Notes: a model not told the origin generated them from the sequence alone. A stretch of 64,000 nucleotides of DNA from an archaeon (GCA_027051165.1 JALTZZ010000029.1:9001-73000); one strand, 5' to 3'; shown: positions 28,904 through 63,335, counted from the first letter of the stretch. Numbers and translations are program-made.

Positions 28904-28976
28904 GGGCCCGTAGCTCAGCAGGCAGAGCGCCGCCTTCGCAAGGCGGAGGCCTCGGGTTCGAATCCCGACGGGTCCA
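28904..28976 (+). tRNA. tRNA-Ala (anticodon CGC); its 3' part (28935-28976) is the provirus att core
   Basis: Cloverleaf: acceptor GGGCCCG/CGGGUCC with the G3:U70 Ala identity pair; anticodon stem CCGCC/GGCGG with loop UUCGCAA; T-arm UCGGG-UUCGAAU-CCCGA; followed by an oligo-T. Confidence 0.95.
28935..28976 (+). repeat. attL core (42 bp; 3' part of tRNA-Ala)
   Basis: Identical to 63294-63335. Confidence 0.9.
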
Positions 28977-29186
28977 TTTTGATCGTTTTGCACAAAAGAG
29001 GCTTGAGTTAAGCTTATTTTTTACAACAATTTTTTCATTTACAAATTTGTTTTCATTTACGCTATTTTTTGCGTATTTTAAAATATTTTCGAATACTTTC
29101 CGTTTAGCTCTTTTGTCTTTATATACACTATTGATGAATTCTTCAACCCTGCTCATTGTCCTAAGCGAATTTCCAGTATTATACAA
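28935..29186 (-). CDS. int: Integrase N-terminal fragment int(N) of an SSV-type split tyrosine integrase (with in-frame att core)
   Basis: Minus-strand ORF MYNTGNSLRTMSRVEEFINSV...CAKRSK followed by core-encoded WTRRDSNPRPPPCE. The same 14 aa are encoded in the same frame in the int(C) ORF at the other end. The listed 138-aa ORF 28770-29186 is a read-through across the tRNA. Confidence 0.7.
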
Positions 29187-29526
29187 CGATTTTTATCTCA
29201 TCTTTCTTTTCTATTAGAACTATGTTCTCCGCTTCCAGTTTTCTCTTGACTCTTTCGAAAACGAGTTCTCTTAGTGTTTTTCCAACTATACCGTGCTCCC
29301 GCATTATTGCTTTTAACTCTTCCTTGCTCAGGTGCTCGCTGTTTCGTGATATTATTTCAAATGCTACTTCTCTCGCTTTCTCGTCGATCCACTCGTATTT
29401 CTTCATTACATTTACTACTCTTGCCGAAGCTTCCAAATCCTCTAAAGTTACATAGTGATATATGTCAACCTCAGCTATATTCTCCCCACCACAAAATTGG
29501 CAAGTAACTTCCAGCCCCACGAGCAT
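29179..29526 (-). CDS. Hypothetical protein with N-terminal CxxC; upstream gene of the int operon
   Basis: 115 aa, CQFCGGE; overlaps the int(N) start by 8 nt. Confidence 0.35.
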   Translation of the reverse strand: MLVGLEVTCQFCGGENIAEVDIYHYVTLEDLEASARVVNVMKKYEWIDEKAREVAFEIISRNSEHLSKEELKAIMREHGIVGKTLRELVFERVKRKLEAENIVLIEKKDEIKIVV

Positions 29527-29527
29527 T

Positions 29528-29887
29528 TTACTCCTCCCCTAATAATTTGTCAAGAAAAATCTTCCTTAATTCTTTGTCTTTCTTAATTTTCTCAGCGAAT
29601 TCTTCGAGAAGTTCCTCGTCTTCTGCAAGTTCATGAAGCGCTCTCTCGGTTATTAGTTTTTCCCGCTGTTTTTCTCGCTCTATTTTTTCAAAGAACATTG
29701 CTAAAGCTGTGCGGACAATATCACTCATGCTTCCATATATTCCCGTTCTTTCAAGCTCTTTGAGCTTATTGTAGAAATATTCTGGCAGTCTTATATTTAT
29801 TCGTGCTATCTTTTTTCCACTACTTCTTTTTTCAAAGTTCTTTTTTATCATGTTTTTCTCCTCAATATTTGTTAATACATTTTTCAT
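29528..29887 (-). CDS. Ribbon-helix-helix (CopG/Arc-type) regulator
   Basis: KKIARINIRLPEYFYNKLKELERTGIYGSMSDIVRTALAMFFEKIE is an RHH fold signature; first gene of the minus-strand RHH-ZnF-int operon. Confidence 0.5.
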   Translation of the reverse strand: MKNVLTNIEEKNMIKKNFEKRSSGKKIARINIRLPEYFYNKLKELERTGIYGSMSDIVRTALAMFFEKIEREKQREKLITERALHELAEDEELLEEFAEKIKKDKELRKIFLDKLLGEE

Positions 29888-30006
29888 GACAATTATAATT
29901 ACATTCGTGCTATATAAAACTTGTCATTATATTTGTTCATACATTAATACATACAAAAATTTTTGCGAATGATTATTTTTCTTTTTGTATATACAAATGT
30001 ATGTAG

Positions 30007-30450
30007 GTGATCAACATGACCGAGGTTGTGGGTAAGGACTTGAAGACCGTGTGGATGGCTGTGGACATTTTGAGGCATGAAGGATTTGAGGTTGATGCCA
30101 AGAGAGCGATGAGAGCGGTAAAGCAGAAAATGAAGCTTGTAGAGTGCTTGAAAGATAAAAACGGCAGAGTTTGGGCAATAGTTAAGAACGGAGAAGGAAA
30201 AGAGTATGAAGTAAGGATAAGCGTAAGCGAGAAGATAGTTAGGTGCTCCTGCGAAGACCACAAATACAGAAAAACTGTCTGCAAGCATGCAATTTTCGTT
30301 TTTCTTAACTGCTTTGAAGAAGCCCAAGAAAAAGCCAAGAAAAAACAAGACGATCTAAGCGAGGAAGAAGTTTCACAGGATACTGCTAAAATGCTCAGCG
30401 AAATGGAAGGCCCAGAAAAAGAAGAAGTTGAAGCTTTCTACGGGTGGTGA
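30007..30450 (+). CDS. SWIM-type zinc finger protein (paralogue of 41910-42320)
   Basis: C-x-C-x(n)-C-x-H: RCSCEDHKYRKTVCKHAIFV; the C-terminus ...EAFYGW is shared with the paralogue. Confidence 0.5.
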   Translation: MINMTEVVGKDLKTVWMAVDILRHEGFEVDAKRAMRAVKQKMKLVECLKDKNGRVWAIVKNGEGKEYEVRISVSEKIVRCSCEDHKYRKTVCKHAIFVFLNCFEEAQEKAKKKQDDLSEEEVSQDTAKMLSEMEGPEKEEVEAFYGW

Positions 30451-30674
30451 AGATGTCAGAAAAAATATTACCGTGTATTTTGCCCACAAACCACTGCGAC
30501 GATGCAAGGGATTGTGTTTCAAACATAATTGGCGAGGATATACCATATTTTTATCATCCAGAAAAACATGGTTTGTGCCACGTAGATTCTGTGAAACTGA
30601 TAAAAGAGCTTGAAAAGAAATTTGGCTGGGATTTTAGGCATTATAAAAATCCTGTAGGTGAGAGAAATGACTGA
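30444..30674 (+). CDS. Hypothetical small Cys/His-rich protein
   Basis: 76 aa; overlaps the SWIM gene end; CILPTNHCDDARDC...HGLCH. Confidence 0.3.
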   Translation: MVKMSEKILPCILPTNHCDDARDCVSNIIGEDIPYFYHPEKHGLCHVDSVKLIKELEKKFGWDFRHYKNPVGERND

Positions 30675-30864
30675 TATAACTGTTAGAGTGAAGGAGGACG
30701 AGATTTTGCTCATAAGAAACAATGAACCAATAATGATAATTGATAGAGAGGCTTATGAGAAGCATAAAGACATTAGAAAACTTTTAAACGTTTTTTTCGT
30801 TGATATGATATTAGCAGAGGTGAAAAAGCACAGATACTCTATTAAAGAAGAACAAAAAAGATAA
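30658..30864 (+). CDS. Hypothetical protein
   Basis: 68-aa ORF translationally coupled to the upstream ORF. Confidence 0.3.
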   Translation: MREMTDITVRVKEDEILLIRNNEPIMIIDREAYEKHKDIRKLLNVFFVDMILAEVKKHRYSIKEEQKR

Positions 30865-30933
30865 GATAAAACATCTTTTTTCTTTTATTTATATTATATA
30901 ATGTATATTACAGCCCTCGTTTTTCCACACATT

Positions 30934-33953: not shown

Positions 33954-34450
33954 CGGTGTTCACGTGTCCTTGGTGTCCAATAACGACAAAAACTCTCTAC
34001 GGGCTCAGAGTTCACGTTAAGACTATACACAAAGACAAAATAATTGACAAGCGAAAAGCCGTTGCCATTCTTGTTAGAACAATGAAAAGCATCGTTCTCA
34101 CAGCGAACGAAAAGAAAAAAGAAGAACTGCTTAAAGCAAGCTTCTCAGTATCGCATAACAACAGCTTAACTGGAAAACGTGCGAAAGCGATCGCATACTT
34201 TTTCTGCAGCAGCAAAGATGCAAGGAAAATGCTCGATGAAGCGTTTAAGCTCAGGGTTAACTATGGTAGACCTAACGGTTCGAGCAATAACGGTGAGAAA
34301 ATAAGAGAATTGAAAAAGCAGATAGAAAACGGCGGAAAAGTTAAAACTGACTTGTTCACTCTCGTAGAGCTACTAAACAGCGAGAAAGACAGCACGACAG
34401 CGAGAAAAGTGAGAGAAGCAATAAAAGCGGAGAGGTATAAGCTAACATGA
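33950..34450 (+). CDS. C2H2-like zinc-finger protein
   Basis: CPWCPITTKTLYGLRVHVKTIH. Confidence 0.35.
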   Translation: MTVFTCPWCPITTKTLYGLRVHVKTIHKDKIIDKRKAVAILVRTMKSIVLTANEKKKEELLKASFSVSHNNSLTGKRAKAIAYFFCSSKDARKMLDEAFKLRVNYGRPNGSSNNGEKIRELKKQIENGGKVKTDLFTLVELLNSEKDSTTARKVREAIKAERYKLT

Positions 34451-34453
34451 ACG

Positions 34454-34619
34454 GTGTCAAGAACAACCTTGACACTAATAATAATGTGTCAAGCTCCAAC
34501 TTGACACATAGAAGAAGAACAACATATAGTGAGCACGGTGTCAACAACAAGATTGATGACGACACCGTAAAAAACAGTAGTGGTAATACATCTAATGTGT
34601 CAACTTTCAGCTTGACACC
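34454..34619. promoter_or_regulatory. Array of three palindromic sites GTGTCAAG-N6-CTTGACAC, plus a half-site (candidate origin/iteron or regulator-binding array)
   Basis: Palindromes at 34454-34475, 34486-34507 and 34598-34619 lie inside the low-complexity (N/S/T-rich) N-terminal part of ORF 34447-35211. Confidence 0.5.
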
Positions 34620-34635
34620 AGAAGAAGCAGCAGAC

Positions 34636-35211
34636 ATGGTTGATATATTAGCAGAATTAAAATATAATAAAAACAAGCTGAAGCTTGCTTATTTTCTTGT
34701 AAAAAACAGAAACTATATAAGCGTAACAGAGGCGGCGAAGCTATTAAAAGTGAAAAGACAGGCAATCCATCAAATGCTTGAGAATTCAGAGATATTTAAC
34801 TACGCTGTTATAAAAACAAAATTTTCTGAAGGTTATAAAAGCAAAAAAATAACATTATCAGCATTCTGCGAAAAATATGCAGCAGTTATAGAAAAATTGG
34901 CAACGAAAAAACTAAGTCTCGAAGAAATTTTAAAAATTGAGAAATTTAAACCAGCGATACAAATGAAAGCTGAGAAATACTTTCAAAACAATGGAAAAGA
35001 GTTTGTAAAACGTGGTATAGAAATATACATTAATGAAGGTGAACGAGGGCTCAACAAATATTTACAGGGTCTTTCTACCAAGCCGTTTTGGACTCAAGAA
35101 AAAGTAACAGTTCTAAAAGAAATTATCATGGAAAAGATCAGAAAAAAAATGAATTCTACTTATTTTTTAATTAAAATGAAAATTTATGAAAAATTAGAAG
35201 GGGAGGAATAA
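34636..35211 (+). CDS. Hypothetical protein with HTH-like segment
   Basis: ISVTEAAKLLKVKRQAIHQMLEN is HTH-like. The ORF formally opens at 34447, but its first ~60 codons are low-complexity and carry the palindrome array, so Met at 34636 is the more plausible start. Confidence 0.3.
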   Translation: MVDILAELKYNKNKLKLAYFLVKNRNYISVTEAAKLLKVKRQAIHQMLENSEIFNYAVIKTKFSEGYKSKKITLSAFCEKYAAVIEKLATKKLSLEEILKIEKFKPAIQMKAEKYFQNNGKEFVKRGIEIYINEGERGLNKYLQGLSTKPFWTQEKVTVLKEIIMEKIRKKMNSTYFLIKMKIYEKLEGEE

Positions 35212-35214
35212 AGA

Positions 35215-35736
35215 ATGGAAAGAATAGTTAAATGCAAGCTTGACTGCTGCGATACCAGAGCTTTCGAGTGCGACGAGGAAAATTGCAAAACACAGATGCT
35301 GTGCTGCAAATGTCCAAGTGGAACACCTGAGTTACCAAAAGTAGAGTGTCCAAACTGCGGGGCTATTGCAGACATGGGCGAGCTTTTCGAAGTCGAGACA
35401 TTCCCAGAAACGAGCTTACAAAAGATTTACAACAAAATAGCAGGAATAATAAACGATTTCATTTTATTTTTAAGGGACGTATTAAGTGGCGGAGTGTATT
35501 GCTCTAAATGGCCAAAAATCATAAACAAAATAACGGGAAGATCAAGGTTTAGAGTTCCCTACAAGATAGTTGATAAGCTACTGCCAACACTTCCATACTG
35601 GAGACTAAAATATTTTGATCATTTTATTTGGATCTGTAAAAAATGCGGAATGAAGTATTTAGACCCGGATCCTTATACTTTTCTAACTTTTGATTATAAA
35701 AAAGAGGAGTGTGTGGAAAATGAAGGCCGTTTGTGA
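35215..35736 (+). CDS. Cys-rich hypothetical protein
   Basis: Multiple CxxC pairs (CKLDCCD, CCKCPSG, CPNCG, CKKCGM); GGAGG Shine-Dalgarno sequence upstream. Confidence 0.35.
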   Translation: MERIVKCKLDCCDTRAFECDEENCKTQMLCCKCPSGTPELPKVECPNCGAIADMGELFEVETFPETSLQKIYNKIAGIINDFILFLRDVLSGGVYCSKWPKIINKITGRSRFRVPYKIVDKLLPTLPYWRLKYFDHFIWICKKCGMKYLDPDPYTFLTFDYKKEECVENEGRL

Positions 35737-36466
35737 AGGAAAATACCTACGGGGAGTATTTGAGGCGGTAGGAAAGATAGTGAACACAGCAATACTGAAA
35801 GCAAGCGAGGACGGCATGAAACTGAGAGCAATGAACTCAGAGCATACAATACTCGTTGACATGGAACTTGAAAAAAGTTTGTTCGAAGACTACGAAATAG
35901 AAGAAGACGAAAGCATAGGCATAGACATTAGCCAGCTGCTGAAGATACTGAAAAGAGCGAAAAAAGACGACAACATTACATTAGAAACAAGCAAAGAAAC
36001 AATAAAAATAACAATTGACGGCACTGCAGAGAGGACGTTTGAGTTCCCAGCATTAGCAGACGTCGAAGAAGATGAAATAAAGTTCCCAGAGCTTAACTAT
36101 GAAGCGGAAATATCCATTGAGGATCCAAGTGTCCTTAAGGAAATCATGAAAGACGTGGAGATAGTAGGCAACGCTGCTGTGCTTAAGGCAACAAAAGAGG
36201 AGTTTATAATACAAGCTCAAGGAAACGGATATGCATTCTCGAGCTACAAAGCGGCTCCCAGCAACATAAGCCTAAACCTTGATGAAGAGGCTGAAGAGGT
36301 AAAAAGTGCGTTCTCCGTCGAGCTCCTGAAGGATGTTCTGAGAGCGGACAAGTTCATATATAATGCTAAGGTCCATCTTGGCAACGACATCCCACTTAAG
36401 CTTGAGTATACAGGGCCGGGAATAAAGCTGACATACCTAATAGCCCCAAGAATCGAAAACGAATAA
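35720..36466 (+). CDS. Virus-encoded PCNA (DNA polymerase sliding clamp) homologue
   Basis: MKAVCEGKYLRGVFEAVGKIVNTAILKASEDGMKLRAMNSEHTILVDMELEKSLFEDYEIEEDESIGIDISQLLKILKR ... LGNDIPLKLEY ... LIAPRIE matches the PCNA topology and motifs over ~248 aa. Confidence 0.7.
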   Translation: MKAVCEGKYLRGVFEAVGKIVNTAILKASEDGMKLRAMNSEHTILVDMELEKSLFEDYEIEEDESIGIDISQLLKILKRAKKDDNITLETSKETIKITIDGTAERTFEFPALADVEEDEIKFPELNYEAEISIEDPSVLKEIMKDVEIVGNAAVLKATKEEFIIQAQGNGYAFSSYKAAPSNISLNLDEEAEEVKSAFSVELLKDVLRADKFIYNAKVHLGNDIPLKLEYTGPGIKLTYLIAPRIENE

Positions 36467-36518: not shown

Positions 36519-37142
36519 ATGGATAAAAAAACATATTATCAGACCAGAAACAAAATATTTAATGTCATTTGGATATCAATAATCCCACCAAGGGGGTACA
36601 ACAGAAGGAAGAAGATAGTAATTCTGCCGAGCGAGCTACATAAATTCGTTTTCTGTCCAAAACAATTTTTATTCGACAAAAAATTAAAGAGAAAACCGCC
36701 ATTAAAGAGAAGGATTCTTATTCTTATAGGAAAGATAAAACATTATTTATATATAAAGAGAGGCTACAAGAAAGAGCACCTGCTCGAGGCCGAAATACCA
36801 TGGCTTAACGCAGTGCTGATAGGCAAACCAGATGCTTTCAAAGTTAAAGATAATGTAATAATTCTGGAAGAACTAAAAAATAGGAATGGGCCACTTAATG
36901 GTGCATGGGATTCTGATGTAATTCAAGCATTAGCTTACGCATATCTTTTAAAAGAAAACTATGGCAAAAACGTTAAGATAACTATAATATATAAGAACAG
37001 AAAAGTCGAAGTTCCTTATAACGAGGCTCTTTTAAAGCTATGTTTAGCGGACTATGTAGCCGTAGCAATCGGAGCAAGCGTCCCCATAGCCAAGAAAAGC
37101 GGAAAGTGCAGATGGTGCCAATATCAAGCGGAGTGCAAATAA
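36519..37142 (+). CDS. Cas4-like PD-(D/E)XK nuclease with Fe-S cysteine motif (viral Cas4-like)
   Basis: N-terminal Cys (FVFCPKQF); D..ExK (GKPDAFKVKDNVIILEELK); C-terminal C-x2-C-x5-C (CRWCQYQAEC). Confidence 0.55.
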   Translation: MDKKTYYQTRNKIFNVIWISIIPPRGYNRRKKIVILPSELHKFVFCPKQFLFDKKLKRKPPLKRRILILIGKIKHYLYIKRGYKKEHLLEAEIPWLNAVLIGKPDAFKVKDNVIILEELKNRNGPLNGAWDSDVIQALAYAYLLKENYGKNVKITIIYKNRKVEVPYNEALLKLCLADYVAVAIGASVPIAKKSGKCRWCQYQAECK

Positions 37143-38286: not shown

Positions 38287-38787
38287 ATGAAGCTTGACAA
38301 ACTTGACGCCACTAAGGAAAAGCTTGACAACCTTGACGAGCTTGACGCTGTGACCGTGCCCAATCCCCGCTGCAAAATCTGCCGCTCGCCATATTTGCAC
38401 GAGATAAACAGGATGCTTATTGAAGGCAAGCCATACAGCGAGATAATAGCCAAGTTCCCAGATCTCAATCTAAACAAGCAGAACATAAGCAACCATAAAA
38501 AACACTTTAATTTCATTAGACGAGGGATAGAAAAATATTACCAACAGCTTGAGGAGGGGGCTGACAAGATCGTTGACACTATAAAAATCCTCGACGATGT
38601 AATAATGAGGAGCTACGTTTTTTTAGCTGAAACGAACCCAAAAGAAAAGCCAAGAGTTTGGGAAGTTCTAACAAATGCAATATACAGGGCAGCAAGTTTA
38701 AAACATAAAATAATGGGAGACTATGATGAAGAAGAAGGTTTACTCGAAGAAATATTTGGAAAAGCTGAGGATATTGAAGAAAAATAA
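38287..38787 (+). CDS. Putative terminase small subunit (position-based) with N-terminal CTTGAC repeat cluster
   Basis: Immediately upstream of, and overlapping, terL. The 5' 75 nt contain five CTTGAC hexamers (KLDKLD..KLDNLDELD). Confidence 0.35.
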   Translation: MKLDKLDATKEKLDNLDELDAVTVPNPRCKICRSPYLHEINRMLIEGKPYSEIIAKFPDLNLNKQNISNHKKHFNFIRRGIEKYYQQLEEGADKIVDTIKILDDVIMRSYVFLAETNPKEKPRVWEVLTNAIYRAASLKHKIMGDYDEEEGLLEEIFGKAEDIEEK

Positions 38788-40087
38788 AGAATTGAAAGAA
38801 AAAATTAAAAAAGATCCAGTTATATTTTCAAAATTTCTTCTTAATTTTGACCCTCATGAAGCACAGCAACAAATAATGAGAGATACACACAAATTTATAA
38901 CAGTAGTTGCAGGAAGAAAGTTTGGTAAAACAAAATGCATGGCAGCATATGCTTTATTTTACGCTTTAACAAATCCTAAGCATAGAATACTCGTCGTTGC
39001 ACCAAGCTATTCCCAAGCGTCAATAATGTTTAGGGAAATGTATAATTTTATAAGAAGATCAATTATAAACAAATATGTGTCAAAAATACTAAAAACTCCG
39101 TTTCCACAGATATATTTCAAGAACGATGCTGAAATACATGCAAGATCAACACAAAATCCGGACCTACTGAGAGGTGAGGAAGCAAATCTAATAATAATGG
39201 ATGAAGCTGCATATATTAAAGACGATGTAGTAACCAACGTTCTTGAGCCAATGCTACTTGTAACAAATGGCAGGTGGATAAAAATATCTACACCAGCTGG
39301 TCATAATCATTTTTATGATACCTTCCTTAAGGGACTAAGTGAAGAGTTCCCAGAATATTCAAGTTATCACTTCACATCAACGGCTAATCCTTATGTAAGC
39401 GAAGACTTTATTGAACTAAAAAAGAAAGAGCTTGGAGAAAATTCAATTGCTTTTAGAACAGAATATTTAGCTGAGTTCGTAGAGGATCATAATGCAGTTT
39501 TCAGATGGTCAGATATTCAGAAAAATGTTGCAGATATTGAGCTAATTGACGGGGCTGAGCATATAAGCCGCAGCTATGTTATAGGAGTTGATTTAGCTAA
39601 ATATCAAGATTATACTGTTATCTGCGTTCTCGATGCAACTGAAAAGCCCTATCGCTTAGTTCATTTTGAGAGGTTTAACAGAAGACCTTACGCAGAGGTT
39701 ATTGAGAGAGTTAAGGATCTACATCGCAGGTTCAACGGTGCCAAGGTTCTAATAGACAGCACTGGTGTAGGAGACCCTATCCTGGAGGAACTGCAAGCTT
39801 CTATAGGAGCCGAGGGATACGTATTTACGAGTAAGAGCAAGGTGCAACTTATTCAGAAATTACAAGCTGTTATGGAGAATGGGGAAATAAAATACCCGTA
39901 TATCGAGCCGTTGGTCAAGGAACTACAATTTTTCGAATACCAATTGACGAGAACAGGCGTAAAAATGGAAGCAAGGCAAGGAATGCACGACGACTGTGTG
40001 ATAGCACTTGCATTAGCCGTGTGGGCGGCGGAGCAGTATTCAGGCTCTGCGGGTGGGGAGATCTATCTTGGCTACTCATTTTTATAA
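38723..40087 (+). CDS. terL: Terminase large subunit
   Basis: Walker A VVAGRKFGKTK; Walker B LIIMDEAAYI; C-terminal RNaseH-like nuclease segment (VIGVDLAKYQDYTVICVLD ... HDDCVIALALA). Confidence 0.7.
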   Translation: MMKKKVYSKKYLEKLRILKKNKELKEKIKKDPVIFSKFLLNFDPHEAQQQIMRDTHKFITVVAGRKFGKTKCMAAYALFYALTNPKHRILVVAPSYSQASIMFREMYNFIRRSIINKYVSKILKTPFPQIYFKNDAEIHARSTQNPDLLRGEEANLIIMDEAAYIKDDVVTNVLEPMLLVTNGRWIKISTPAGHNHFYDTFLKGLSEEFPEYSSYHFTSTANPYVSEDFIELKKKELGENSIAFRTEYLAEFVEDHNAVFRWSDIQKNVADIELIDGAEHISRSYVIGVDLAKYQDYTVICVLDATEKPYRLVHFERFNRRPYAEVIERVKDLHRRFNGAKVLIDSTGVGDPILEELQASIGAEGYVFTSKSKVQLIQKLQAVMENGEIKYPYIEPLVKELQFFEYQLTRTGVKMEARQGMHDDCVIALALAVWAAEQYSGSAGGEIYLGYSFL

Positions 40088-51690: not shown

Positions 51691-52161
51691 ATGGCTGAAA
51701 TAGCTTATGAAAAGATGTTGAAAGAAGATTTGATTAGATTATGCTACGAAAAAGATGAACAGATAGCAAGTTTACAAGCACAGGTTAACGAGAAGGACGA
51801 GCAGATAGCGAGCCTGCAGGCACAATTGCAGGAATACAGCACTGTGAAGCAGGAACTTGAAAACATGAAAACGCTTGTAAATACACTATTTTCAAAAGAA
51901 GAGATTAAATTTAGGTTAAATGAGAAAATAAGTATTTTAGAAGAGCAAAAACAGAACATCAAGCAGAGGATAAAAGAAATACAGAATACCATAAATTTAA
52001 CAGATTCTGAAAAAACAAAGCTGGTAGCTGGTTATAATAAGCAAATAGCACAGATAGATGACGAAATAACAAAACTCAGGATTATTTTAGATTTATATTA
52101 TTCGGAAGGGGTGAAACTGCATGACTGCACTTATAGGAAATCAGGTTTTGGAGTATGTTGA
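51691..52161 (+). CDS. Coiled-coil protein with duplicated EKDEQIASLQAQ unit
   Basis: 156 aa; tandem 39-nt duplication at ~51750-51830. Confidence 0.3.
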   Translation: MAEIAYEKMLKEDLIRLCYEKDEQIASLQAQVNEKDEQIASLQAQLQEYSTVKQELENMKTLVNTLFSKEEIKFRLNEKISILEEQKQNIKQRIKEIQNTINLTDSEKTKLVAGYNKQIAQIDDEITKLRIILDLYYSEGVKLHDCTYRKSGFGVC

Positions 52162-56713: not shown

Positions 56714-59455
56714 ATGCCAACCGTAGAGGAACTAATCGTAAAAATAAAAGCTGATGTGGCGAGTTTACAAGCTGGTTTAGTCAAAGCTCGTGAAATGCTC
56801 AGCGATTTCACAGATAAGGTTGAAAAACTAAGCAAAAGCATGCGAAGCATGGCACTAAAAATGATGGCTGTAGGCGGGGCAGTTTCAGCAGGATTCGGTT
56901 TAGCAATCAAGGAAGGAATGGAACTCGAGCAACAAATGGCATACGTAGCAAAAACGACGGGTTTAGCAGGAGAACAGCTTATAGAGCTTAGAGATAGCTT
57001 GCTCGCATTGAGCACACAGATGCCTACATCAGTTGAAGAACTCGCACAGATAGCACAGATAGCAGGTCAGCTTGGTATACAGGGTAGAGCAGCAATCCTC
57101 GAGTTCACGAAAACAGTTGCACAGATGAGCGTAGCTTTTGATATGACTGCTGAAGATGCTACAATAAACATGGCAAAAATTGCAGGTGCTTTTGCATTGC
57201 CCATTAAACAAGTTAAAAATCTCGCAAGCGCTATAAACGTTTTGGGTAATACAACAGCAGCTGCAGAGAGAGAAATTTTAAACGCTCTAAGAAGGTTTGC
57301 AGGTGTAGCCTCTCAGTTTAATATAACGGCTGACTCAGCTTCTGCACTTGTTGCAACGTTAATTGCCCTTGGTGAAGAGCCAGAAAGAGCTGGCTATCGC
57401 TTGTCATCAGCTATTCTCGATCTCACGGACAATTTAGATAAACTTGCACTACAAATGAGGACAACTGTTGAGGAACTTAAGAAACGTTTAGATATGGGTG
57501 ATGCTTTAGGGGTCCTTCTCGACTATTTGAACTACTTGAGACGTATACCAAGCGAAACAGAAAGAGCGGCACTGGCACAGGAAGTATTTTCAGCAGATGC
57601 ATACAGGGCAGTAGCTAAGCTTATAACAGCTTACGACACTCTTCAAGTAAACTTAAAAAATGCTCAGCAAGGCTTTATAGAAGGAACAGCACTTGCGAAG
57701 GAGTATGAGAACGCAACAGCAACGTTGGCGGCACAATTCCAGAGATTAAAGAATGCTATGAAGCTAATAATGATTAAGGTTTTTGATAAAATAAAACCTG
57801 ATTTGGACAATTTTGTAACAAGTATCGAGAGAGCGCTTCCACAGATTTACGCTTTTGCGATAGTATTTGCTAAAACGCTAATTCCAACGTTAAAGCAGTT
57901 TGGTCAGGCTTTATTATCACTTATGAAGTGGTTCATGAACTTGTCTCCGGCTCAGAGAGAGGCATTAATAAAGTTTACTGCGATAGGCACGGCTGTAACC
58001 ATGCTTTTAGGACCGTTGCTACTATTAGCATCGTTTACACTTCCGCTTTTAGCGAAAAGCTTTAAAATGGTTGCTGGAGCTGCATTGTTCAGCACAAGGG
58101 CATTGTTAGCTTTCAGAAGCGGTGCGATATCGGCGAGAATGGTGAGCATAGCAACAGCTATAAGTTTAGCAAGACTCAGAGCAGCTTTATTTGCAGTTTC
58201 AAGGGTAGCAGGAGTTATAGGTCTAATAACAGGTGCTTTGTGGGCTATAAACAAGGGCGTTGAGAAATTTACAGGTAAGGCACTAACAACAAGAATAATG
58301 GAGAGGATCGAAGGAACATGGTTCGGCAAAGCAATATCGAGCTTAAAAGAAAAACTTGGATTACAAAAGCAAATTACAGATGAAAAGAAAGAGGAACTTG
58401 AGATAGAAAGAGAAATGAAAGAATTTGAGGATATTATGAAAAAGATAAAAGAAGAACAGCTTAAAATAGAAACTGCAATAAAAAATATTAAACAAGAAAC
58501 GTTAGAATACACGTTTGAGCAATCAAAACAAGAAAAAATAAACTTAGACTTGCTAACTAAAGCTGTTGAAATTTACAATAAACTCATAGCTCTTAAGGTT
58601 AAGGGCAAGGAACTAACAGTTAGGGAGCAGGCAGAACTGGCTTGGGCTTCTGATATTATAAGCGAAGCTAAAAAGCTATACGAGGATCTCGTAGCTAAGC
58701 AAATGCAAGGTGAACAGCTTACAAGTTCGCAGGTGACAACCTTATCGCAACTACAGGCGATTTTGAGCGGTGTTGTTAGCGAAGCAGAGTTATTAAGTAA
58801 TGCTTTCGGTAAAGCAGGTTTTAAAATAGATGAAATAAGAGAGAAAGCAAGACAGCTTGCTGAGGAAGCACATAGATACTTACAGGAAATCGGAGCAGAA
58901 GAAAAGCCAGCACCGCCAAAGCCATATATACCGCATAAACTCGAAGATACCGTGCAAGAGTTCGTTAGAAGATTTAGAGAAGAGCTTGGAATCGACAAGG
59001 CAAGAGAGTTGGCAGTCAAGTTCTATGAGGAGTTCTGGCATGTAACTGTTAGCGAGGAGAAGAAGCGTGAGCTCGGTATAAAAGTCAAAGCTAAGGTTGA
59101 CAAAACAGAATTAGAGGAATTTTTAAATCAAAAAGTAGAAAAAGTTATTGACATAGTTCCAAATATGGAAAACTTAAAAATACAAGATTTAACAGCTAAT
59201 TTAAAGATAAATACAGATACGACAGTTTTACAAACAGTTAATGATATGCTTACAAATATACAGACAAAAATAAATAATTTGAATGCCATTGTGTTGAGTC
59301 CACTTATAACACAATTTTCAAGCTTGGCTGGTGCAATAAACAACGTATATAACAAACTTGAAGCTGTTGAAGCTAAGTTAAACTCTTTGCAAGGAAAAAG
59401 AATTGATGTTTACATAGACTTACACAACGACCTCGCAAGGAGGGGTGTATTCTAA
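56714..59455 (+). CDS. Tail tape measure protein
   Basis: 913 aa; TMP-family N-terminal region (AVGGAVSAGFGLA...LAGEQLIELRDSLLALSTQMPTSVEELAQIAQIAGQLG); central hydrophobic helices; long coiled coils. Confidence 0.75.
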   Translation: MPTVEELIVKIKADVASLQAGLVKAREMLSDFTDKVEKLSKSMRSMALKMMAVGGAVSAGFGLAIKEGMELEQQMAYVAKTTGLAGEQLIELRDSLLALSTQMPTSVEELAQIAQIAGQLGIQGRAAILEFTKTVAQMSVAFDMTAEDATINMAKIAGAFALPIKQVKNLASAINVLGNTTAAAEREILNALRRFAGVASQFNITADSASALVATLIALGEEPERAGYRLSSAILDLTDNLDKLALQMRTTVEELKKRLDMGDALGVLLDYLNYLRRIPSETERAALAQEVFSADAYRAVAKLITAYDTLQVNLKNAQQGFIEGTALAKEYENATATLAAQFQRLKNAMKLIMIKVFDKIKPDLDNFVTSIERALPQIYAFAIVFAKTLIPTLKQFGQALLSLMKWFMNLSPAQREALIKFTAIGTAVTMLLGPLLLLASFTLPLLAKSFKMVAGAALFSTRALLAFRSGAISARMVSIATAISLARLRAALFAVSRVAGVIGLITGALWAINKGVEKFTGKALTTRIMERIEGTWFGKAISSLKEKLGLQKQITDEKKEELEIEREMKEFEDIMKKIKEEQLKIETAIKNIKQETLEYTFEQSKQEKINLDLLTKAVEIYNKLIALKVKGKELTVREQAELAWASDIISEAKKLYEDLVAKQMQGEQLTSSQVTTLSQLQAILSGVVSEAELLSNAFGKAGFKIDEIREKARQLAEEAHRYLQEIGAEEKPAPPKPYIPHKLEDTVQEFVRRFREELGIDKARELAVKFYEEFWHVTVSEEKKRELGIKVKAKVDKTELEEFLNQKVEKVIDIVPNMENLKIQDLTANLKINTDTTVLQTVNDMLTNIQTKINNLNAIVLSPLITQFSSLAGAINNVYNKLEAVEAKLNSLQGKRIDVYIDLHNDLARRGVF

Positions 59456-61938
59456 TGCTTCCAATGCAGGGAGAAGTTAAGGTTTATATTGCTAACAAGC
59501 TTATAGACAAAGTTAAACGTTGTGAAGTAAGGCAAGCTGTAAGCATAGCAAATGGTGAAGCGGTAATTGAACTTGAAAACATAACAGAGGAATACAACGA
59601 CATTAATGTCAATGATACAGTTGAAATATATGCAAGCGATGCATGGGCTACAGACAAGTTAATTTTCAAGGGATACGTAAGAAGCATAAAGCATATTATA
59701 AGAAATGAGGAAAATATTATACAGATAAGAGCAGTTGACGACACGAACAAGCTCCATTATCGTTTTGTCAATGCAGAAGAGTTCTACGTCTGGGAAATCG
59801 GCGATTTGGTTAAGGAGATAGTTAAAGATTTAGGATTTGACACGAGCAACGTAAATAGCAGTTTTATAGCAACAGAAGCGGGGCCAACTGCAAGCTACAA
59901 CTCCGGAGCAGCAACAATGCTAAATGGTGGAGTAACATTCACATGCACATGGAGCGACCTTGATAGCTACATTTACGTAAAGCTGAGAGGCGGAAGCTAC
60001 GAGTTCAGGATGGGCAAAAGTGGTAATGGTGCATATTTTGAGTTCTGGAAGGGTTCAACAAGACTGAGCTACTTCACACTAAACGATTTCATCTTTTCTC
60101 AAGACTTTGAAGTAAGGCTTGTTGCAAGAGGCTCTGAGTTTAGGGTATACGTAAAAGACGCTCAAATGCAAACGTATACTAAAGTGCTTGATGTTGTGGA
60201 TGAGGAATTTCAGAACGCAGGTTATGTTGAGATAGGTAGTGATGCTGGCAATTCTGCTTTCTCAAATATCAAAATTATAGACGAAAACAACATGATTGAG
60301 CATATACAAGTTAAGGGCCGTAGTTTGTTTGATGTTTTACAAGAATTAGCTGAAGCTAAAGCAATTCATGACGAGTATCACGACTTTTGGGTTGATGACG
60401 GAAAATTATATTTTGTTAGACGTGGCTGGCAGGATACAGGCATAACATTGACGCAAACAACCAATATAAATAAAAATACATGTACTATTCTCGAAAGCGA
60501 GTTTGAGAAATCGCTCTTAGAGGTAAGAAATAAAATAATTGTAAACGGGGCAACGGTGGAGAGGTATTATCCTTGGGATGGAGACATGTTTACAGAAAAA
60601 GCAGCAAACCTATGGATAGGATGGCTTACATGGCAAAAATTAAGGAATTTAGAAGGTTATAACTTAGCAGATAGCAATGATGCAATGGTTGGATTAGCAA
60701 GTATATATATGGCTGCAAGCGGTCTTTCTACAAATTATGGCACCGCACATTTTTGGTTTAATCTTCCAAAGACCATTAATTTAAATATTTTTAAAAGTTT
60801 AAAGTTATGGAAAAAAGCTGTTGGTTATGGTTCTGGTAATATACAGTATATCATGCTGGCATCTGATTATGCATTGAAAAAATATCATGGAAACGCAAAT
60901 GCTACAGAAAATATTGTTTCTGGTAGATATTATGCAATGCCATTTATTGCAAGTTCTGACAGAATAACGCTTTTAGCAGTAAAAGTTGATTATTCTGCAG
61001 ATAGTATAACCGGTGGGAACGTTGAATTTTATTTATATGATGATAATAATGGTATACCGGGTAATTTAATAGCATCTGCTTCATGGAGCTATGCAAATAT
61101 ACAGCTTGGAGGTTGGTGGTGGGTAGAATTCAACGTTTCTGTAGTTCCGGGACAAAAATACTGGCTTGTTTTTAGATCAACACTAACATTTTCTGTATTA
61201 AACTATTATTACTTATATTATGACAGCTCTGGTAACGGAATGCTGTATAGTGACGATGGTACAACATGGAACAATTTTACAGGTGGAACAGCACTCATAG
61301 AAATACGTGAGCCACAAGATTATTTCTATAAAAGTATAGGAGCTAATGAGAGTTGGAATGAAAAAGAGCTTGAAATAGGACCGTTATCTTCATGGAATGT
61401 CGTTGGAAATCCAGACTGGAATAATATAAAAAGTATAGGCATAACATGGACGGATACTGGTGGGACAAGTTATACTGATATTGTATATATTGACGGTCTT
61501 CATTTTGTAAAGCCAAGCGAAAAAGTAACAGTTGTAGCCGAAGACGCTAACTCTCAAGCTCGGTATGGTGTTAGAGAGTTGATAATAAACGATGCAAGTA
61601 TAGCAAGTGAGCAGAGGGCGAGAGACGTTGCGAAAGCAAAGTTAGCGTTGCTTAGGGACGTGAAGAGGCGTGGACGTGTAATTTGTAACGGTAACGTAAA
61701 CCTGCAAGCTGGAAAAATTGTTACTGTTAATATCCCATTACAGGGAATAAACAATGAAAAACTGAGAATTCTTGAAGCTGTGCATAGATTTAACCTTGAA
61801 ACAAAAGAATACCTGTGTGAGTTAAACCTCGATGAAGATTATCCGGCTTTAGATGCAATTTTAAAGAAACAGAAAAAAGAGCTTGACGAAGTAAGAGCAA
61901 GAGTTGCGGCATTAGAGAGTCTTATTGTCAAAACATAA
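59455..61938 (+). CDS. Putative distal tail/baseplate protein with large C-terminal extension
   Basis: 827 aa; starts at the TMP stop (ATGCTTCC overlap), the typical Dit position; the C-terminal ~500 aa are Gly/Asn/Tyr/Trp-rich and beta-rich (receptor-binding-like). Confidence 0.4.
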   Translation: MLPMQGEVKVYIANKLIDKVKRCEVRQAVSIANGEAVIELENITEEYNDINVNDTVEIYASDAWATDKLIFKGYVRSIKHIIRNEENIIQIRAVDDTNKLHYRFVNAEEFYVWEIGDLVKEIVKDLGFDTSNVNSSFIATEAGPTASYNSGAATMLNGGVTFTCTWSDLDSYIYVKLRGGSYEFRMGKSGNGAYFEFWKGSTRLSYFTLNDFIFSQDFEVRLVARGSEFRVYVKDAQMQTYTKVLDVVDEEFQNAGYVEIGSDAGNSAFSNIKIIDENNMIEHIQVKGRSLFDVLQELAEAKAIHDEYHDFWVDDGKLYFVRRGWQDTGITLTQTTNINKNTCTILESEFEKSLLEVRNKIIVNGATVERYYPWDGDMFTEKAANLWIGWLTWQKLRNLEGYNLADSNDAMVGLASIYMAASGLSTNYGTAHFWFNLPKTINLNIFKSLKLWKKAVGYGSGNIQYIMLASDYALKKYHGNANATENIVSGRYYAMPFIASSDRITLLAVKVDYSADSITGGNVEFYLYDDNNGIPGNLIASASWSYANIQLGGWWWVEFNVSVVPGQKYWLVFRSTLTFSVLNYYYLYYDSSGNGMLYSDDGTTWNNFTGGTALIEIREPQDYFYKSIGANESWNEKELEIGPLSSWNVVGNPDWNNIKSIGITWTDTGGTSYTDIVYIDGLHFVKPSEKVTVVAEDANSQARYGVRELIINDASIASEQRARDVAKAKLALLRDVKRRGRVICNGNVNLQAGKIVTVNIPLQGINNEKLRILEAVHRFNLETKEYLCELNLDEDYPALDAILKKQKKELDEVRARVAALESLIVKT

Positions 61939-61943
61939 TATTA

Positions 61944-61956
61944 TTTTTAAAGTCTT
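61944..61956 (+). promoter_or_regulatory. Provirus promoter motif TTTTTAAAGTCTT (AAAGTCT 26 nt upstream of ATG 61975)
   Basis: Member of the recurrent family. Confidence 0.45.
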
Positions 61957-61974
61957 CTCTTCCCGAAGATAAGC

Positions 61975-62211
61975 ATGGGAAGAATAAAAAGATTCATAAT
62001 ATTCCTAAGTTTCGTGATAGCTTATTTTTACTTCATATTGCTCGTAGCGACTTTTTTAGCAGCTTATGGAAGCGAAACAAAACAAGTTATAGTAGATATA
62101 AACAGCTTCGGAGAAGCAAACTTTGAGTATATTCTGTTTACGATTCTCGTGGCGATCACTACGGTTGGGTTTTACTATTTCTTTGAATGGCTTGATGAAC
62201 GTTTACAGTAA
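61975..62211 (+). CDS. Small 2-TM membrane protein (holin-like candidate)
   Basis: 78 aa with two hydrophobic helices and a charged C-terminus; last gene of the + strand module. Confidence 0.3.
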   Translation: MGRIKRFIIFLSFVIAYFYFILLVATFLAAYGSETKQVIVDINSFGEANFEYILFTILVAITTVGFYYFFEWLDERLQ

Positions 62212-62270
62212 GATTTATATGCTTTTCACGACATAATAACGTATGTAGACGCCTTCGTGATCACCGGTGA

Positions 62271-62341
62271 ATAAGTGATTTGGGCCCGGGCAGTGACGGC
62301 AGCGACGGGCCAGCAAGAGCGCCCGGGCCCACCTTCTTGTT
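62271..62341. other. GC-rich island with an 11-bp-arm hairpin TGGGCCCGGGC-N29-GCCCGGGCCCA and palindrome TCACCGGTGA
   Basis: Stands out against the AT-rich background; lies between the 3' end of int(C) and the holin-like gene. Confidence 0.6.
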
Positions 62342-62417
62342 AAACTATAAAACTCGAGATAATAAGTTATAAGTCCCGGTAGTGAGATCCTGCTGCACAC
62401 TGTTTATAATTTATAAA

Positions 62418-63335
62418 CTAACTCACCAGTATAGGGAACTTGTCCACAACTTTCTTGTAGTGCTCTATAGCTTGCATCCTCAGAAACAAATAATGCTTGC
62501 TCCCTACTTTAACGCTCGCCCTTCCTTGCATAAAATCGGCCACACTTTCAGGGATATTATGCAAAACGAAAAAATTATCAACCCATTTTCTTATAGCATT
62601 TGCATCAATACGTGAGTTAACAGGAGGCCTCCATTTTCTTGGGTTAAGTCTCGCATACCATGATTTATATTTAAGCTTTTTATTTATAGATCTCAACTTC
62701 TCAGCAAACTCCGAAGGAAAGACTGCTATAAAACTTCTTTTTGTTCCTCTTGAAAATTCTACCATAGGATATGCCGCCACGTTGCCGTGATATTCTATTT
62801 TATTCTTGTCAAAATTTCGGAGAGCCAATATGGAAGGTTTTGCTCTCAATCCTGTAAAAACAAGCCATTGGTATAGAATTAAAGTATCTTCATCCCACTT
62901 CTCTTTGATTAAATAGTAACCTTGTTTTATCTCTTCATTAGTTAGATAAACTTCTCTTACACCAGATTTTGGGATTTTAAGAAAGCTTGAAGATAGAATA
63001 TCCATTGCTATCCATCTGTTCATCATCTCTCTTTCAACGAGATAGTGAATTAAGTTCCTCACGGCTCTAACGAAACGTTCTTTATCCGTGCATTTATAGA
63101 AAGCCTTCCTAAGATCTTCTTTTGATTTAATGGGTTTATCTAAGTATTTATCAAGGATTTTTATTATTTCGTTAAGATATTCTTTACTCGTTATTTTTGG
63201 CTTCTTTTCTATTGTTAGGTAGTTTATGAAGTCTTTTTCATCAACATCATACCAATTTATTATGTATCCTTCTATTTGAATTATATTTTCATTTTCGCAA
63301 GGCGGAGGCCTCGGGTTCGAATCCCGACGGGTCCA
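62418..63335 (-). CDS. int: Integrase C-terminal fragment int(C) of an SSV-type split tyrosine integrase (with in-frame att core)
   Basis: The minus-strand ORF encodes the core peptide WTRRDSNPRPPPCE, then NENIIQIEGY...FTGLRAKP...HNIPESVADFMQGRASVKVGSKHY (recombinase R / H..R / Y residues). Upstream of the core, the listed ORF start MLILCKTNKK is host-derived read-through. Confidence 0.75.
   Translation of the reverse strand, partial: WTRRDSNPRPPPCENENIIQIEGYIINWYDVDEKDFINYLTIEKKPKITSKEYLNEIIKILDKYLDKPIKSKEDLRKAFYKCTDKERFVRAVRNLIHYLVEREMMNRWIAMDILSSSFLKIPKSGVREVYLTNEEIKQGYYLIKEKWDEDTLILYQWLVFTGLRAKPSILALRNFDKNKIEYHGNVAAYPMVEFSRGTKRSFIAVFPSEFAEKLRSINKKLKYKSWYARLNPRKWRPPVNSRIDANAIRKWVDNFFVLHNIPESVADFMQGRASVKVGSKHYLFLRMQAIEHYKKVVDKFPILVS
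63294..63335 (+). repeat. attR core (42 bp partial tRNA-Ala copy)
   Basis: Identical to 28935-28976. Its flank 63336-~63400 is ~80% similar to 28977-~29045. Confidence 0.9.

Follow-up and report, generated by a model that had tools for sequence, protein, structure and literature searches.

The locus described here raises the question of whether two gene fragments at the ends of a provirus are the halves of one integrase gene cut by integration and, if so, which type of integrase it encodes and what kind of virus carries it. The window analyzed is a 64,000-nucleotide stretch of archaeal DNA, with all positions counted from its first letter. A head-tailed provirus occupies 34.4 kb of the window (28935-63335) and is inserted in tRNA-Ala; the host is an uncultured archaeon from a hydrothermal vent. 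The observation as a whole, a provirus with a split integrase gene, was confirmed as a real feature. Its boundaries are as follows.

28904-28976, plus strand: intact tRNA-Ala(CGC) called by ARAGORN, whose 3' 42 nt are the attL core
28935-28976, no strand: attL core, perfect 42-bp copy (repeat search)
63294-63335, no strand: attR core, perfect 42-bp copy (repeat search)

The core 42-mer, TTCGCAAGGCGGAGGCCTCGGGTTCGAATCCCGACGGGTCCA, is the 3' part of tRNA-Ala(CGC), the sole tRNA called by ARAGORN. It occurs exactly twice, with no mismatch between the copies and 34,359 bp from start to start, while 100 shuffles gave no match. The perfect 42-bp direct repeat that the initial annotation placed around the element was recovered at both positions. 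A search of JGI metagenomes with the exact core sequence gave no matches, and no empty tRNA-Ala site was found.

Two minus-strand ORFs (28770-29186 and 62418-63365) read the core in one shared frame as WTRRDSNPRPPPCE, in agreement with the initial annotation. They comprise the following parts, all by translation.

28977-29156, minus strand: int(N), 60 codons from ATG 29156, reading into the core antiparallel to the tRNA
62418-63293, minus strand: int(C), 291 codons and a stop (translated from 63293 to 62421), with core-binding and catalytic domains
63336-63365, minus strand: ten-codon leader with in-frame ATG 63365, giving a 315-aa ORF through the core into int(C)

An AGGA lies 4-7 nt upstream of the int(N) ATG, and the alternative start at TTG 29186 gives the 70 codons counted earlier. 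The join of int(N), core and int(C) has an unbroken frame of 365 aa from the ATG, in which the core supplies codons 61-74, or 375 aa from the TTG; the lengths first proposed (70, about 291 and about 375 aa) therefore hold from the TTG start. An intact 365-aa integrase gene was absent from all contigs and predicted proteins of the protein collections searched.

SSV-type suicidal integrases are well known from spindle-shaped viruses, pleomorphic viruses and plasmids, and the type is expected to integrate and excise with no directionality factor. The joined ORF, which had been predicted to show integrase homology in an open frame, matched Pfam PF16795 over residues 189-359 (E 6.3e-34; 117.6 bits against a cut-off of 27), and phmmer aligned it with the SSV1 integrase PDB chains 3VCF, 4DKS and 3UXU (E 1e-5). 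The AF2 model of the joined integrase (pLDDT 82) had its best Foldseek matches in 3UXU and 3VCF (TM 0.72-0.82 on target), 3UXU being the top match (TM 0.82 on target, rmsd 2.9). In the model, int(N) residues 1-33 form a helical hairpin, and the core-encoded peptide is within a low-confidence linker (residues 34-82) between the hairpin and the DNA-binding/catalytic body, a predicted position that would explain why an in-frame tRNA sequence is tolerated. Residues R224, K259, R309, H341 and Y342 of int(C) (joined-protein numbering) are, along with K310 and G331, invariant in an alignment with the SSV1 integrase, the pT26-2 integrase and intact homologues. The SSV-type active-site signature is R..KxxR..Y (PMC5861418). 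R224, R309 and Y342 are present, and the signature lysine is N306. Since the pT26-2 integrase, which is active in experiments, has N in this column too, the wider class does not always carry the KxxR lysine.

Two features of SSV-type integrases were found, namely the catalytic domain (PF16795, SSV1 fold) and an attP core inside the ORF, in frame within 365 open codons. In a classical integrase (type II, pNOB8- or XerC/D-like) att lies outside an intact gene, whereas here the core is internal and the gene is split. Sequence and predicted fold support the joined ORF as an SSV-type ("suicidal," type I) integrase. The nearest characterized relatives are the pT26-2 and Archaeoglobus pleomorphic provirus integrases at 32-34% identity, for example 33.7% over 68% of the query for pT26-2 t26-1p (tblastn, E 2e-29), with 33.6% for the P. 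abyssi plasmid integrase; fusellovirus integrases are about 28% identical. This kinship refines the fusellovirus-type reading proposed initially.

Homologues of the integrase bear on whether int(N) is a genuine part of the gene. An exhaustive HMMER search found intact relatives with an embedded tRNA-like peptide, namely P0027 (377 aa), P0033 (344 aa, "WRARRDSNPRLPAPKA"), P0139 and P0029. The first, second and third of these, all that were checked, match PF16795, and the intact full-length relatives have the tRNA-derived peptide at the same place as the core peptide here. The clear ribbon-helix-helix motif of several intact relatives was not seen in int(N). If int(N) were spurious, int(C) or the 315-aa ORF would be the whole integrase in a classical att-beside-gene layout. 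The 315-aa ORF does include every confidently folded domain of the AF2 model, and the closest head-module relatives, described below, do use a classical integrase beside a tRNA gene. However, ATG 63365 lies in a degraded remnant outside the element and so is not part of the viral genome. In addition, the int(N) DNA is 95% identical in a sister element (L020) from the same metagenome, where int(N) reads into another tRNA, tRNA-Leu(TAA), after the same 60 codons; the similarity extends beyond the gene, with 92% identity over bases 29180-29429. In the intact relatives and the SSV1 and pT26-2 integrases, too, an N-terminal segment precedes a tRNA-derived peptide, and the SSV1 integration site occupies the same codon position. 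A spurious int(N) has hardly any probability, and the split-gene reading is retained.

The genes between the two cores indicate the kind of virus involved.

29179-30348, minus strand: leftward early/regulatory genes adjoining int(N), among them a weak ribbon-helix-helix protein at 29528-29887 (Pfam RHH_1 E 9e-4, below cut-off)
35690-36466, plus strand: virus-encoded PCNA sliding clamp (PF00705, PF02747; TIGR00590 105 bits)
36519-37142, plus strand: Cas4-family nuclease (TIGR00372 65.4 bits, cut-off 65; PADLOC Cas4 1e-18)
38287-38787, plus strand: probable small terminase subunit, by position (53-63% aa identity in IMG/VR relatives)
38723-40087, plus strand: large terminase subunit, terL (PF03237 1e-19, PF17289 4e-17)
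40154-42320, minus strand: cassette inserted between terL and portal, with RAMP and SWIM proteins
40914-41669, minus strand: Csm3-like RAMP protein (PF03787 1e-11; PADLOC Csm3 1.5e-10)
41910-42320, minus strand: SWIM zinc-finger protein, within the same cassette
42743-43882, plus strand: portal protein (PF04860 4e-19)
43879-45141, plus strand: MuF-like minor head protein (PF04233 7e-22)
45371-46651, plus strand: prohead serine protease, S78 (PF04586 1.5e-12, residues 9-147 of 426)
46644-47060, plus strand: cement/decoration protein (PF09956 3e-13)
47072-47869, plus strand: HK97-fold major capsid protein (PF25209 6e-18, PF05065 3e-13)
50750-51160: weak HK97-gp10-like match (E 0.002, below Pfam cut-off)
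52121-53017, plus strand: tail tube protein (PF18906 6e-14)
56714-59455, plus strand: tape measure protein (PF10145 1.5e-24)
59455-61938, plus strand: distal tail protein (PF24032 YQBQ-like 1.6e-9; phrog_400 tail protein 2e-10)

The HK97-fold capsid, large terminase and portal expected of Caudoviricetes (Duplodnaviria) are all present. The probable small terminase gene received no assignment in a Pfam search and is kept beside terL in relatives. The long C-terminal extension of the S78 protease is possibly a scaffold. No tail sheath gene was found in the provirus, and the tail is for this reason predicted to be siphovirus-like. As judged from its genes, the interior of the provirus is a complete head-tailed, siphovirus-like module. 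Most of the caudoviral module listed initially was thereby recovered by Pfam (terL, MuF, the HK97-type protease and the tape measure protein); the gp10 match is weak.

The closest relatives of the head module are two head-tailed proviruses in IMG/VR, UViG_646311906_000001 and UViG_2634166507_000001. Both have genomes of 31-34 kb, a syntenic head module with 55-70% aa identity and a like-oriented integrase gene at the same end; past the head-tail connectors, the tail module is not conserved. They encode a classical PF00589 integrase (E 3e-11) that scores 19 bits with PF16795, below cut-off, and in UViG_2634166507_000001 the integrase ORF continues into a complete same-strand tRNA-Leu(TAA) gene. 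Given this difference from the closest head-module relatives, the integration module appears to have been swapped.

The right flank of the element contains a second copy of part of int(N).

63338-63414, minus strand: degraded int(N)-like stretch (..NKLNSCLFCVKQIK), 78% identical to 28977-29053

This stretch is out of frame with the core by +2 nt and has no start codon. We infer that a related element with a suicidal integrase had inserted in tRNA-Ala earlier and left the int(N) remnant that now borders attR. The 77 nt might instead be DNA that natively follows the tRNA, sharing an extended but imperfect att homology with the virus. In favor of a native flank, the alignment with int(N) fades after about 80-115 nt, and 63415-64000 has no other match to the provirus, other loci or PHROGs. 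However, the codon pattern of int(N) is kept (KLNSCLFCVKQIK against KLNSSLFCAKRSK, NVKNENNF against NSVNENKF), and the 2-nt indel falls exactly at the core boundary, as in hybrid junctions (PMC7253208). Moreover, 28977-29053 is by far the best match to the flank in the window, with a score of 43 against a background of 8.9 +/- 2.2. A native flank is therefore considered unlikely, and the remnant of an earlier element is preferred. The interpretation given in the initial annotation is supported overall; it had missed this second int(N) remnant, the tRNA-Leu sister element and the different integrase of the relatives.

An independent assembly supports attL and points to a possible circular form. 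In ENA scaffold_1302, host DNA is followed by the tRNA, the core and 13 nt of int(N), in that order and at 100% identity. Scaffold_36708, which opens with the first base of the core, has an overlap of exactly 55 nt with scaffold_1302, and the final base of the attR core is also that of scaffold_4189. If these come from a k=55 graph, the 55-nt overlap and core-edge ends are branch nodes expected only when int(C)-core-int(N) reads are present. On this contig-end geometry, with k=55 assumed, a circular or tandem form (attP junction) probably coexists in the sample; no attP contig was recovered. Two further assemblies of the sample are interrupted at the cores, which could also mean that the virus is purely episomal and that the MAG contig was wrongly joined to the host through the 42 bp common to the integrase gene and the tRNA. 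Such an artefact is very improbable. Scaffold_1302 requires attL-specific 55-mers in the reads, and it passes 28976, where it would stop if host versus virus were the sole branch. In addition, all 15 of the close public homologues are int(C) only (at most 315 aa), and several open with tRNA-derived peptides, for example RRDLNPRPPGYE and GFEP. The integrated state is thus the norm for this integrase family.

The element is very probably a 34,359-bp temperate, siphovirus-like Caudoviricetes virus integrated in tRNA-Ala(CGC) by its own SSV-type integrase, in an uncultured archaeon (putatively a euryarchaeon) of a deep-sea hydrothermal deposit. The attP core would lie inside the integrase gene of the virus, antiparallel to the tRNA, and recombine with the same 42 bp in the tRNA gene. 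This would restore an intact tRNA at attL and cut the integrase gene, such that int(N) (60 codons and core) stays at attL with the start and promoter side and int(C) (core and 291 codons, all catalytic residues) ends up 34 kb away at attR. Excision across both cores would rebuild the gene. The provirus alone would make no full-length integrase and would have to rely on a copy that is episomal or arrives by superinfection, or on weak activity of Int(C) translated from ATG 63365. Int(C) of SSV1 and SSV2 shows weak recombination in vitro (review PMC8371274). Given this activity and the 315-aa ORF, the earlier statement that the integrase is inactive while integrated is likely but not certain.

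The split gene could alternatively mark a trapped or domesticated provirus that has lost excision and persists as a fossil or co-opted particle producer. Entrapment is the default expectation for suicidal integrases (review PMC8371274), the protein collections searched held no intact copy, and neither an empty site nor an attP contig was recovered. However, both cores remain perfect 42-mers, int(N) and int(C) are uninterrupted, share a frame and retain every catalytic residue, every hallmark virion gene is full length, and the contig overlaps of 55 nt at the two nodes that contain the core agree with a coexisting attP junction. Entrapment is decidedly unlikely, and the temperate virus remains the preferred reading.

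A broader reading has two parts, both previously undocumented: a tailed virus with a swapped-in suicidal module and an intermediate of successive insertion in one tRNA gene. We regard it as possible but doubtful. If it is true, a tailed virus has traded a classical integrase for an "all-in-one" suicidal module and lives like SSV1, with integrated and circular copies together, unlike lambda. The attR flank would then be the intermediate that the hybrid-integrase model of Badel et al. requires and that was not observed by them, in which successive related insertions leave a hybrid, frameshifted int(N)_B-core-int(C)_A junction. The sister with the same int(N) head would have moved from an Ala tRNA (no variable arm) to a Leu tRNA (variable arm), across a class boundary thought to restrict target switching.

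The IntpT26-2 family comprises suicidal integrases of Thermococcales/Archaeoglobales plasmids and integrated elements (Badel et al. 2020, PMC7253208). It shares with the present integrase an attP inside the ORF, an antiparallel orientation of gene and tRNA, insertion into the 3' part of a tRNA gene, a core of 40-50 bp, and separate int(N)/int(C) histories with target switching. The pT26-2 integrase also has N before Arg II (ANTLRKW in pT26-2, ANAIRKW here). Data set 1 of that study used BlastP similarity >25% over 60% of the protein, and the present integrase falls within it at 33.7% over 68%, with the tRNA on the plus strand and the integrase on the minus strand. The stricter data set 2 used >35% over 60%, above the 33.7% and 33.6% obtained here in comparisons with two members only. 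The core frame differs (WTRRDSNPRPPPCE here, GGPGGIRTRDLRLRS in pT26-2). The study reported no tandem events among 73 integrases, whereas here a second int(N) remnant lies at the same tRNA. Its carriers were pT26-2 plasmids, pAMT11/TKV1, fuselloviruses and unclassified elements, in contrast to a head-tailed virus, and no earlier case of an SSV-type suicidal integrase in a tailed virus was found.

The SSV1 integrase shares PF16795, the catalytic-domain fold (3UXU, TM 0.82 on target) and partition into int(N) and int(C) by integration. The annotated 44-bp SSV1 integration site covers codons about 64-78 of a 335-aa gene, compared with 61-74 here. The two differ in sequence (about 28% identity) and active site (KxxR in SSV1, NxxR here), and SSV1 is a 15-kb spindle-shaped, non-lytic Sulfolobales virus that persists in episomal and integrated forms. 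Among deposited virus genomes, the best match was the integrase of Archaeoglobus profundus pleomorphic provirus 1 (BK065154), with 31.9% identity (E 1e-33) over query residues 64-362. The gene for that integrase is at the end of the provirus record, and the similarity continues upstream of the CDS as annotated. The carrier is a 14.7-kb pleolipovirus-like element of Monodnaviria, not a tailed virus. The provirus integrase is a further member of an already known integrase type.

tRNA-Ala(CGC), at 28904-28976 on the plus strand, is the sole tRNA gene that ARAGORN detects in the window. The 42 nt at its 3' end (28935-28976), which reach from the anticodon loop to the discriminator base, recur as a perfect second copy at 63294-63335. 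No third copy with three or fewer mismatches was found in the window, and none occurred in 100 shuffles. The core-to-core spacing of 34,359 bp would be the size of the excised circle. Two minus-strand ORFs, 28770-29186 and 62418-63365, read the core in the same frame as the peptide WTRRDSNPRPPPCE. The integrase gene half at attL, int(N), supplies 60 codons upstream of the core from an ATG at 29156, with AGGA 4-7 nt before the ATG, and the half at attR, int(C), supplies 291 codons past the core. Joined through the core, the halves give an uninterrupted ORF of 365 codons, or 375 if started at TTG 29186. The initial annotation had described a perfect 42-bp repeat of the 3' part of tRNA-Ala, translation of the core in one frame by both minus-strand end ORFs and a joined integrase of about 375 aa, all of which these results bear out. 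A run of T follows the core at both junctions, and it would also supply a terminator to the rebuilt tRNA gene.

The joined protein matches Pfam PF16795 ('Archaeal phage integrase') over residues 189-359 (E 6.3e-34) and three PDB entries of the SSV1 integrase catalytic domain (E 1e-5). These matches support the earlier interpretation of the joined gene as an SSV-type integrase. An AlphaFold2 model of the joined protein has a mean pLDDT of 82, and Foldseek searches with this model placed SSV1 entries on top (3UXU, TM 0.82 on target, rmsd 2.9 A), followed by Xer, lambda and Cre recombinases. In an alignment of the joined protein with the SSV1 integrase, the pT26-2 integrase and four intact homologues, the invariant residues are R224, K259, R309, K310, G331, H341 and the nucleophile Y342. 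The signature of SSV integrases is R..KxxR..Y (PMC5861418). The position of the KxxR lysine is N306 in the joined protein, and the experimentally active pT26-2 integrase also has N at this column. The model has a helical hairpin at residues 1-33 and is confident over residues 83-365; between these parts, at residues 34-82, pLDDT is <50. The core-encoded peptide falls within the low-pLDDT segment and therefore probably sits in a flexible linker, a placement that fits the free variation of the translated att site (PMC8371274).

The features annotated inside the provirus, and one gene of its host, are as follows.

18040-20577 (minus strand), full-length bacterial-type MutS1 (host; NF003810, 1043 bits)
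35690-36466, PCNA sliding clamp
36519-37142, Cas4-family nuclease (TIGR00372, just over cut-off)
38723-40087, TerL (Pfam)
40154-42320 (minus strand), four-gene cassette inserted between terL and portal
40914-41669 (minus strand), stand-alone Csm3/Cas7-like RAMP protein (PF03787 1e-11, PADLOC Csm3 1.5e-10)
42743-43882, portal (Pfam)
43879-45141, MuF (Pfam)
45371-46651, S78 protease with a long C-terminal extension (Pfam)
46644-47060, cement protein (Pfam)
47072-47869, HK97-fold capsid protein (Pfam)
52121-53017, tail tube (Pfam)
56714-59455, tape measure (Pfam)
59455-61938, distal tail protein (Pfam)

All hallmark virion genes are full length, and the interior is a complete tailed virus; the caudoviral module proposed earlier is confirmed by Pfam matches to TerL, MuF, S78 protease and tape measure, among others, with a weak HK97-gp10-like match at 50750-51160 (E 0.002, below the Pfam cut-off). 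The provirus yielded no sheath gene, so its tail is siphovirus-like. Small regulators, the PCNA and the Cas4 nuclease lie in the left third, and no polymerase, primase or MCM gene was recognised in the provirus. The minus-strand cassette also encodes a SWIM zinc-finger protein, and its first gene (40154-40921) has a 76%-identical partial match (140/255 aa) at a different position in a related provirus (locus L013, 15535-15954). As a type III backbone subunit that stands alone in a virus, the RAMP protein could serve as an anti-CRISPR decoy. A search of the provirus for an excisionase gave no convincing candidate, and a sub-threshold HTH_17 match at 34447-35211 was left unused. A sigma-70 promoter scan stayed at background level, the motif being irrelevant to archaea. 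ARAGORN detected no internal tRNA in the provirus. Related tailed (pro)viruses carry tRNA-Gln(TTG) in the structural region (L012, 10328-10402; L013, 14232-14307, the same gene as L024, 6116-6191).

The archaeal host genes in the window include thermosome, Bax1, TFE and an archaeal-type PEP carboxylase, and the bacterial-type MutS1 is also present. Against PDB chains the thermosome scored 759 bits with Thermococcus, 713 with M. maripaludis and 683 with Thermoplasma, and such sequence scores would place the host no finer than a euryarchaeon. MutS1 is, to our knowledge, absent from most hyperthermophilic archaea, and here it may inform the placement of the host lineage or be a sign of horizontal transfer.

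The window belongs to a GenBank MAG contig of 73,785 bp. Its DNA recurs at 100% identity in an independent ENA assembly (SAMN12239309, hydrothermal-deposit metagenome) and in the Logan assembly of SRR10312489. ENA scaffold_1302 leads from host genes across the complete tRNA and the core and reaches 13 nt into int(N), so attL is supported independently of the MAG contig. This scaffold ends at 28989 (core plus 13 nt), scaffold_36708 starts at 28935, the first core base, and overlaps it by exactly 55 nt, and the final base of scaffold_4189 is 63335, where the attR core ends. A 42-bp repeat with different flanking bases gives no branch in a k=55 de Bruijn graph. The core plus 13 nt on the int(N) side, and 13 nt on the int(C) side plus the core, branch only if reads of the order int(C)-core-int(N), the attP junction, exist. 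With an empty site as the extra junction, 28976 would be the last base of the host contig and 28922 the first of the viral contig, and neither was observed. Thus, assuming a k=55 graph, we infer from the contig-end geometry that the SAMN12239309 sample contains, beside the provirus, a circular or tandem form in which the integrase gene is rebuilt. In the early region, scaffold_36708 and Logan SRR10312489_68390 both end exactly at 31836, which suggests a second branch point, for example sequence common to a sister element, or a strain variant.

A second int(N)-like stretch, 63338-63414, lies immediately to the right of attR and shares 78% identity with the int(N) DNA that adjoins attL on its right side. 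It outscores every other match in the window to the attL-side flank (43 vs a background of 8.9 +/- 2.2; the next, unrelated match scores 22). The stretch keeps the int(N) codon pattern (KLNSCLFCVKQIK vs KLNSSLFCAKRSK), has a 2-nt insertion at the core boundary and is without a start codon. A homology of the att site extended into the native tRNA flank remains a rival explanation of this identity; the simplest reading is that the attR flank is the relic of an earlier, related suicidal-integrase element (element B) in the same tRNA. Element B may be a short relic or a whole second element, both being compatible with a window that stops at 64000. If the relic reading holds, the attR junction would be a frameshifted hybrid of int(N) of element B, the core and int(C) of the present provirus. 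Badel et al. reported 0 tandem events in 73 such integrases and proposed such hybrid junctions as intermediates of hybrid-integrase evolution (PMC7253208). Exact-protein look-ups of ORF 63553-63783 (two versions) and of P0001 returned no match.

A contig of the same metagenome, L020 (ENA ERZ23495399 scaffold_6739, 1-1004), holds 736 nt of a sister element that shares the int(N) head but has another target. The contig matches 29180-29429 at 92% identity over its bases 1-250, and bases 746-880 show 95% identity to int(N) at 29013-29147 (approximately codons 4-48) and diverge beyond. Between the two conserved blocks are two small ORFs absent from the window element. The L020 int(N) also comprises 60 codons, after which it runs antiparallel into tRNA-Leu(TAA). 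The G+C content of its host flank is 37%, vs 36% for the host region of the window. Target switching is described as limited by the boundary that separates tRNAs with a variable arm from those lacking one (PMC8371274), and the Ala-to-Leu difference between the window provirus and L020 crosses that boundary.

The head module shares 55-70% protein identity with four IMG/VR contigs, two of which are 31-34-kb proviruses from isolate genomes. Both isolate proviruses carry a different integrase at the same end and in the same orientation (PF00589, E 3e-11; PF16795 under cut-off). Since related head modules occur with different integrases, the integration module has been exchanged between otherwise related tailed viruses. 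In one of the two (L024, UViG_2634166507_000001) the integrase ORF continues into a complete tRNA-Leu(TAA) on the same strand. This PF00589 ORF (18134-19057) is open across the whole tRNA, with no ATG ahead of the catalytic domain. The initial annotation overlooked these different integrases, as well as the int(N) stretch beside attR and the L020 sister element. A tblastn search of the INPHARED deposited virus genomes with the capsid protein found no match.

A word-indexed search for relatives of the integrase returned only 15 proteins, all of 315 aa or less and covering the int(C) part alone, several of which begin with tRNA-derived peptides (for example WARRDLNPRPPGYE and PPGFEP). Thus, this integrase family is mostly seen integrated and split. 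An exhaustive HMMER search returned 306 proteins at E <=1e-3. Among them are intact ones of 328-405 aa, which have an N-terminal segment that often resembles a ribbon-helix-helix, then a tRNA-like peptide and then a body that aligns with int(C). Examples are P0027, P0033 ('WRARRDSNPRLPAPKA'), P0139 and P0029, and all three intact homologues tested (P0027, P0033 and P0139) match PF16795. In IMG/VR the A2 profile found no relatives of the window integrase. In JGI metagenomes the exact core gave 0 hits and the A2 profile gave 13 loci, every one int(C) only, at which provirus proteins matched nothing besides the integrase. P0006 and P0003 adjoin restriction-modification, TIR or PIN islands, and the neighbours of P0004 are genes without Pfam assignment; the P0011 contig stops short of any informative neighbour. 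The nearest int(C) homologues, at L005 / L003 (Archaeoglobaceae MAG JALSOQ010000005, 10001-20879) and L021 (1-6807), border defence-type islands, not viruses, with type I restriction-modification, TIR and PIN/AF2212-like genes. Thus, the link to tailed viruses is not general in the integrase clade, which serves very different cargo. The joined integrase has matches in 30 of 50,697 deposited phage and archaeal-virus records, namely Sulfolobus fuselloviruses and relatives, TPV1 and two Archaeoglobus pleomorphic (pro)viruses, with ApPV1 as the top match (31.9% identity, E 1e-33); none of the 30 is a tailed virus. PLSDB matches are pT26-2 (33.7%), a P. abyssi plasmid, pTN3 and a Saccharolobus plasmid.

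By analogy with the family (PMC8371274, PMC7253208), full-length integrase expressed from the circular genome would recombine attP with the tRNA gene without accessory factors, and insertion would part int(N) and the promoter side from int(C). Excision would then need full-length integrase in trans, supplied by an episomal or superinfecting relative, and residual Int(C) activity may add to it. The earlier claim that the integrase is inactive while integrated is probable, and it falls short of certain because the relic outside the element contains an in-frame ATG at 63365, from which a 315-aa ORF extends across the core and continues as int(C).

An element whose insertion destroys its integrase ought to stay trapped, which is a paradox, and a tailed virus, it is commonly assumed, has to be out of the chromosome before packaging of its genome can occur. 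The provirus is therefore a concrete system for asking how induction works. Until now, suicidal integrases were associated with plasmids and with non-lytic archaeal viruses of spindle-shaped, pleomorphic or PRD1-like type. The open-access literature searched gave no case of a tailed virus with an SSV-type integrase: none is mentioned in a review on archaeal tyrosine recombinases (PMC8371274), by Badel et al. 2020 (PMC7253208), in the arTV taxonomy paper (PMC8651126) and in the accessible part of a 2026 Thermococcales virus preprint (PMC12934983), and the paper on 38 head-tailed proviruses (PMC11705971) mentions no SSV-type integrase. The finding is real, its mechanism is already known and, within this literature, its carrier, a tailed virus, is new. 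Also new are the naturally occurring cases of a swapped module, a switched target and one tRNA used repeatedly. The remnant and the tRNA-Leu sister give natural cases for the model by which reshuffling of int(N), core and int(C) changes target specificity. In SSV1 the annotated 44-bp integration site corresponds to approximately codons 64-78 of 335 (RefSeq), and the core here corresponds to codons 61-74; the pT26-2 integrase gene is antiparallel to its tRNA (PMC7253208), as is the gene described here. A suicidal integrase in a complete tailed virus extends the reach of such integrases to the realm Duplodnaviria and, the mechanism being already known, widens the existing picture without changing it.
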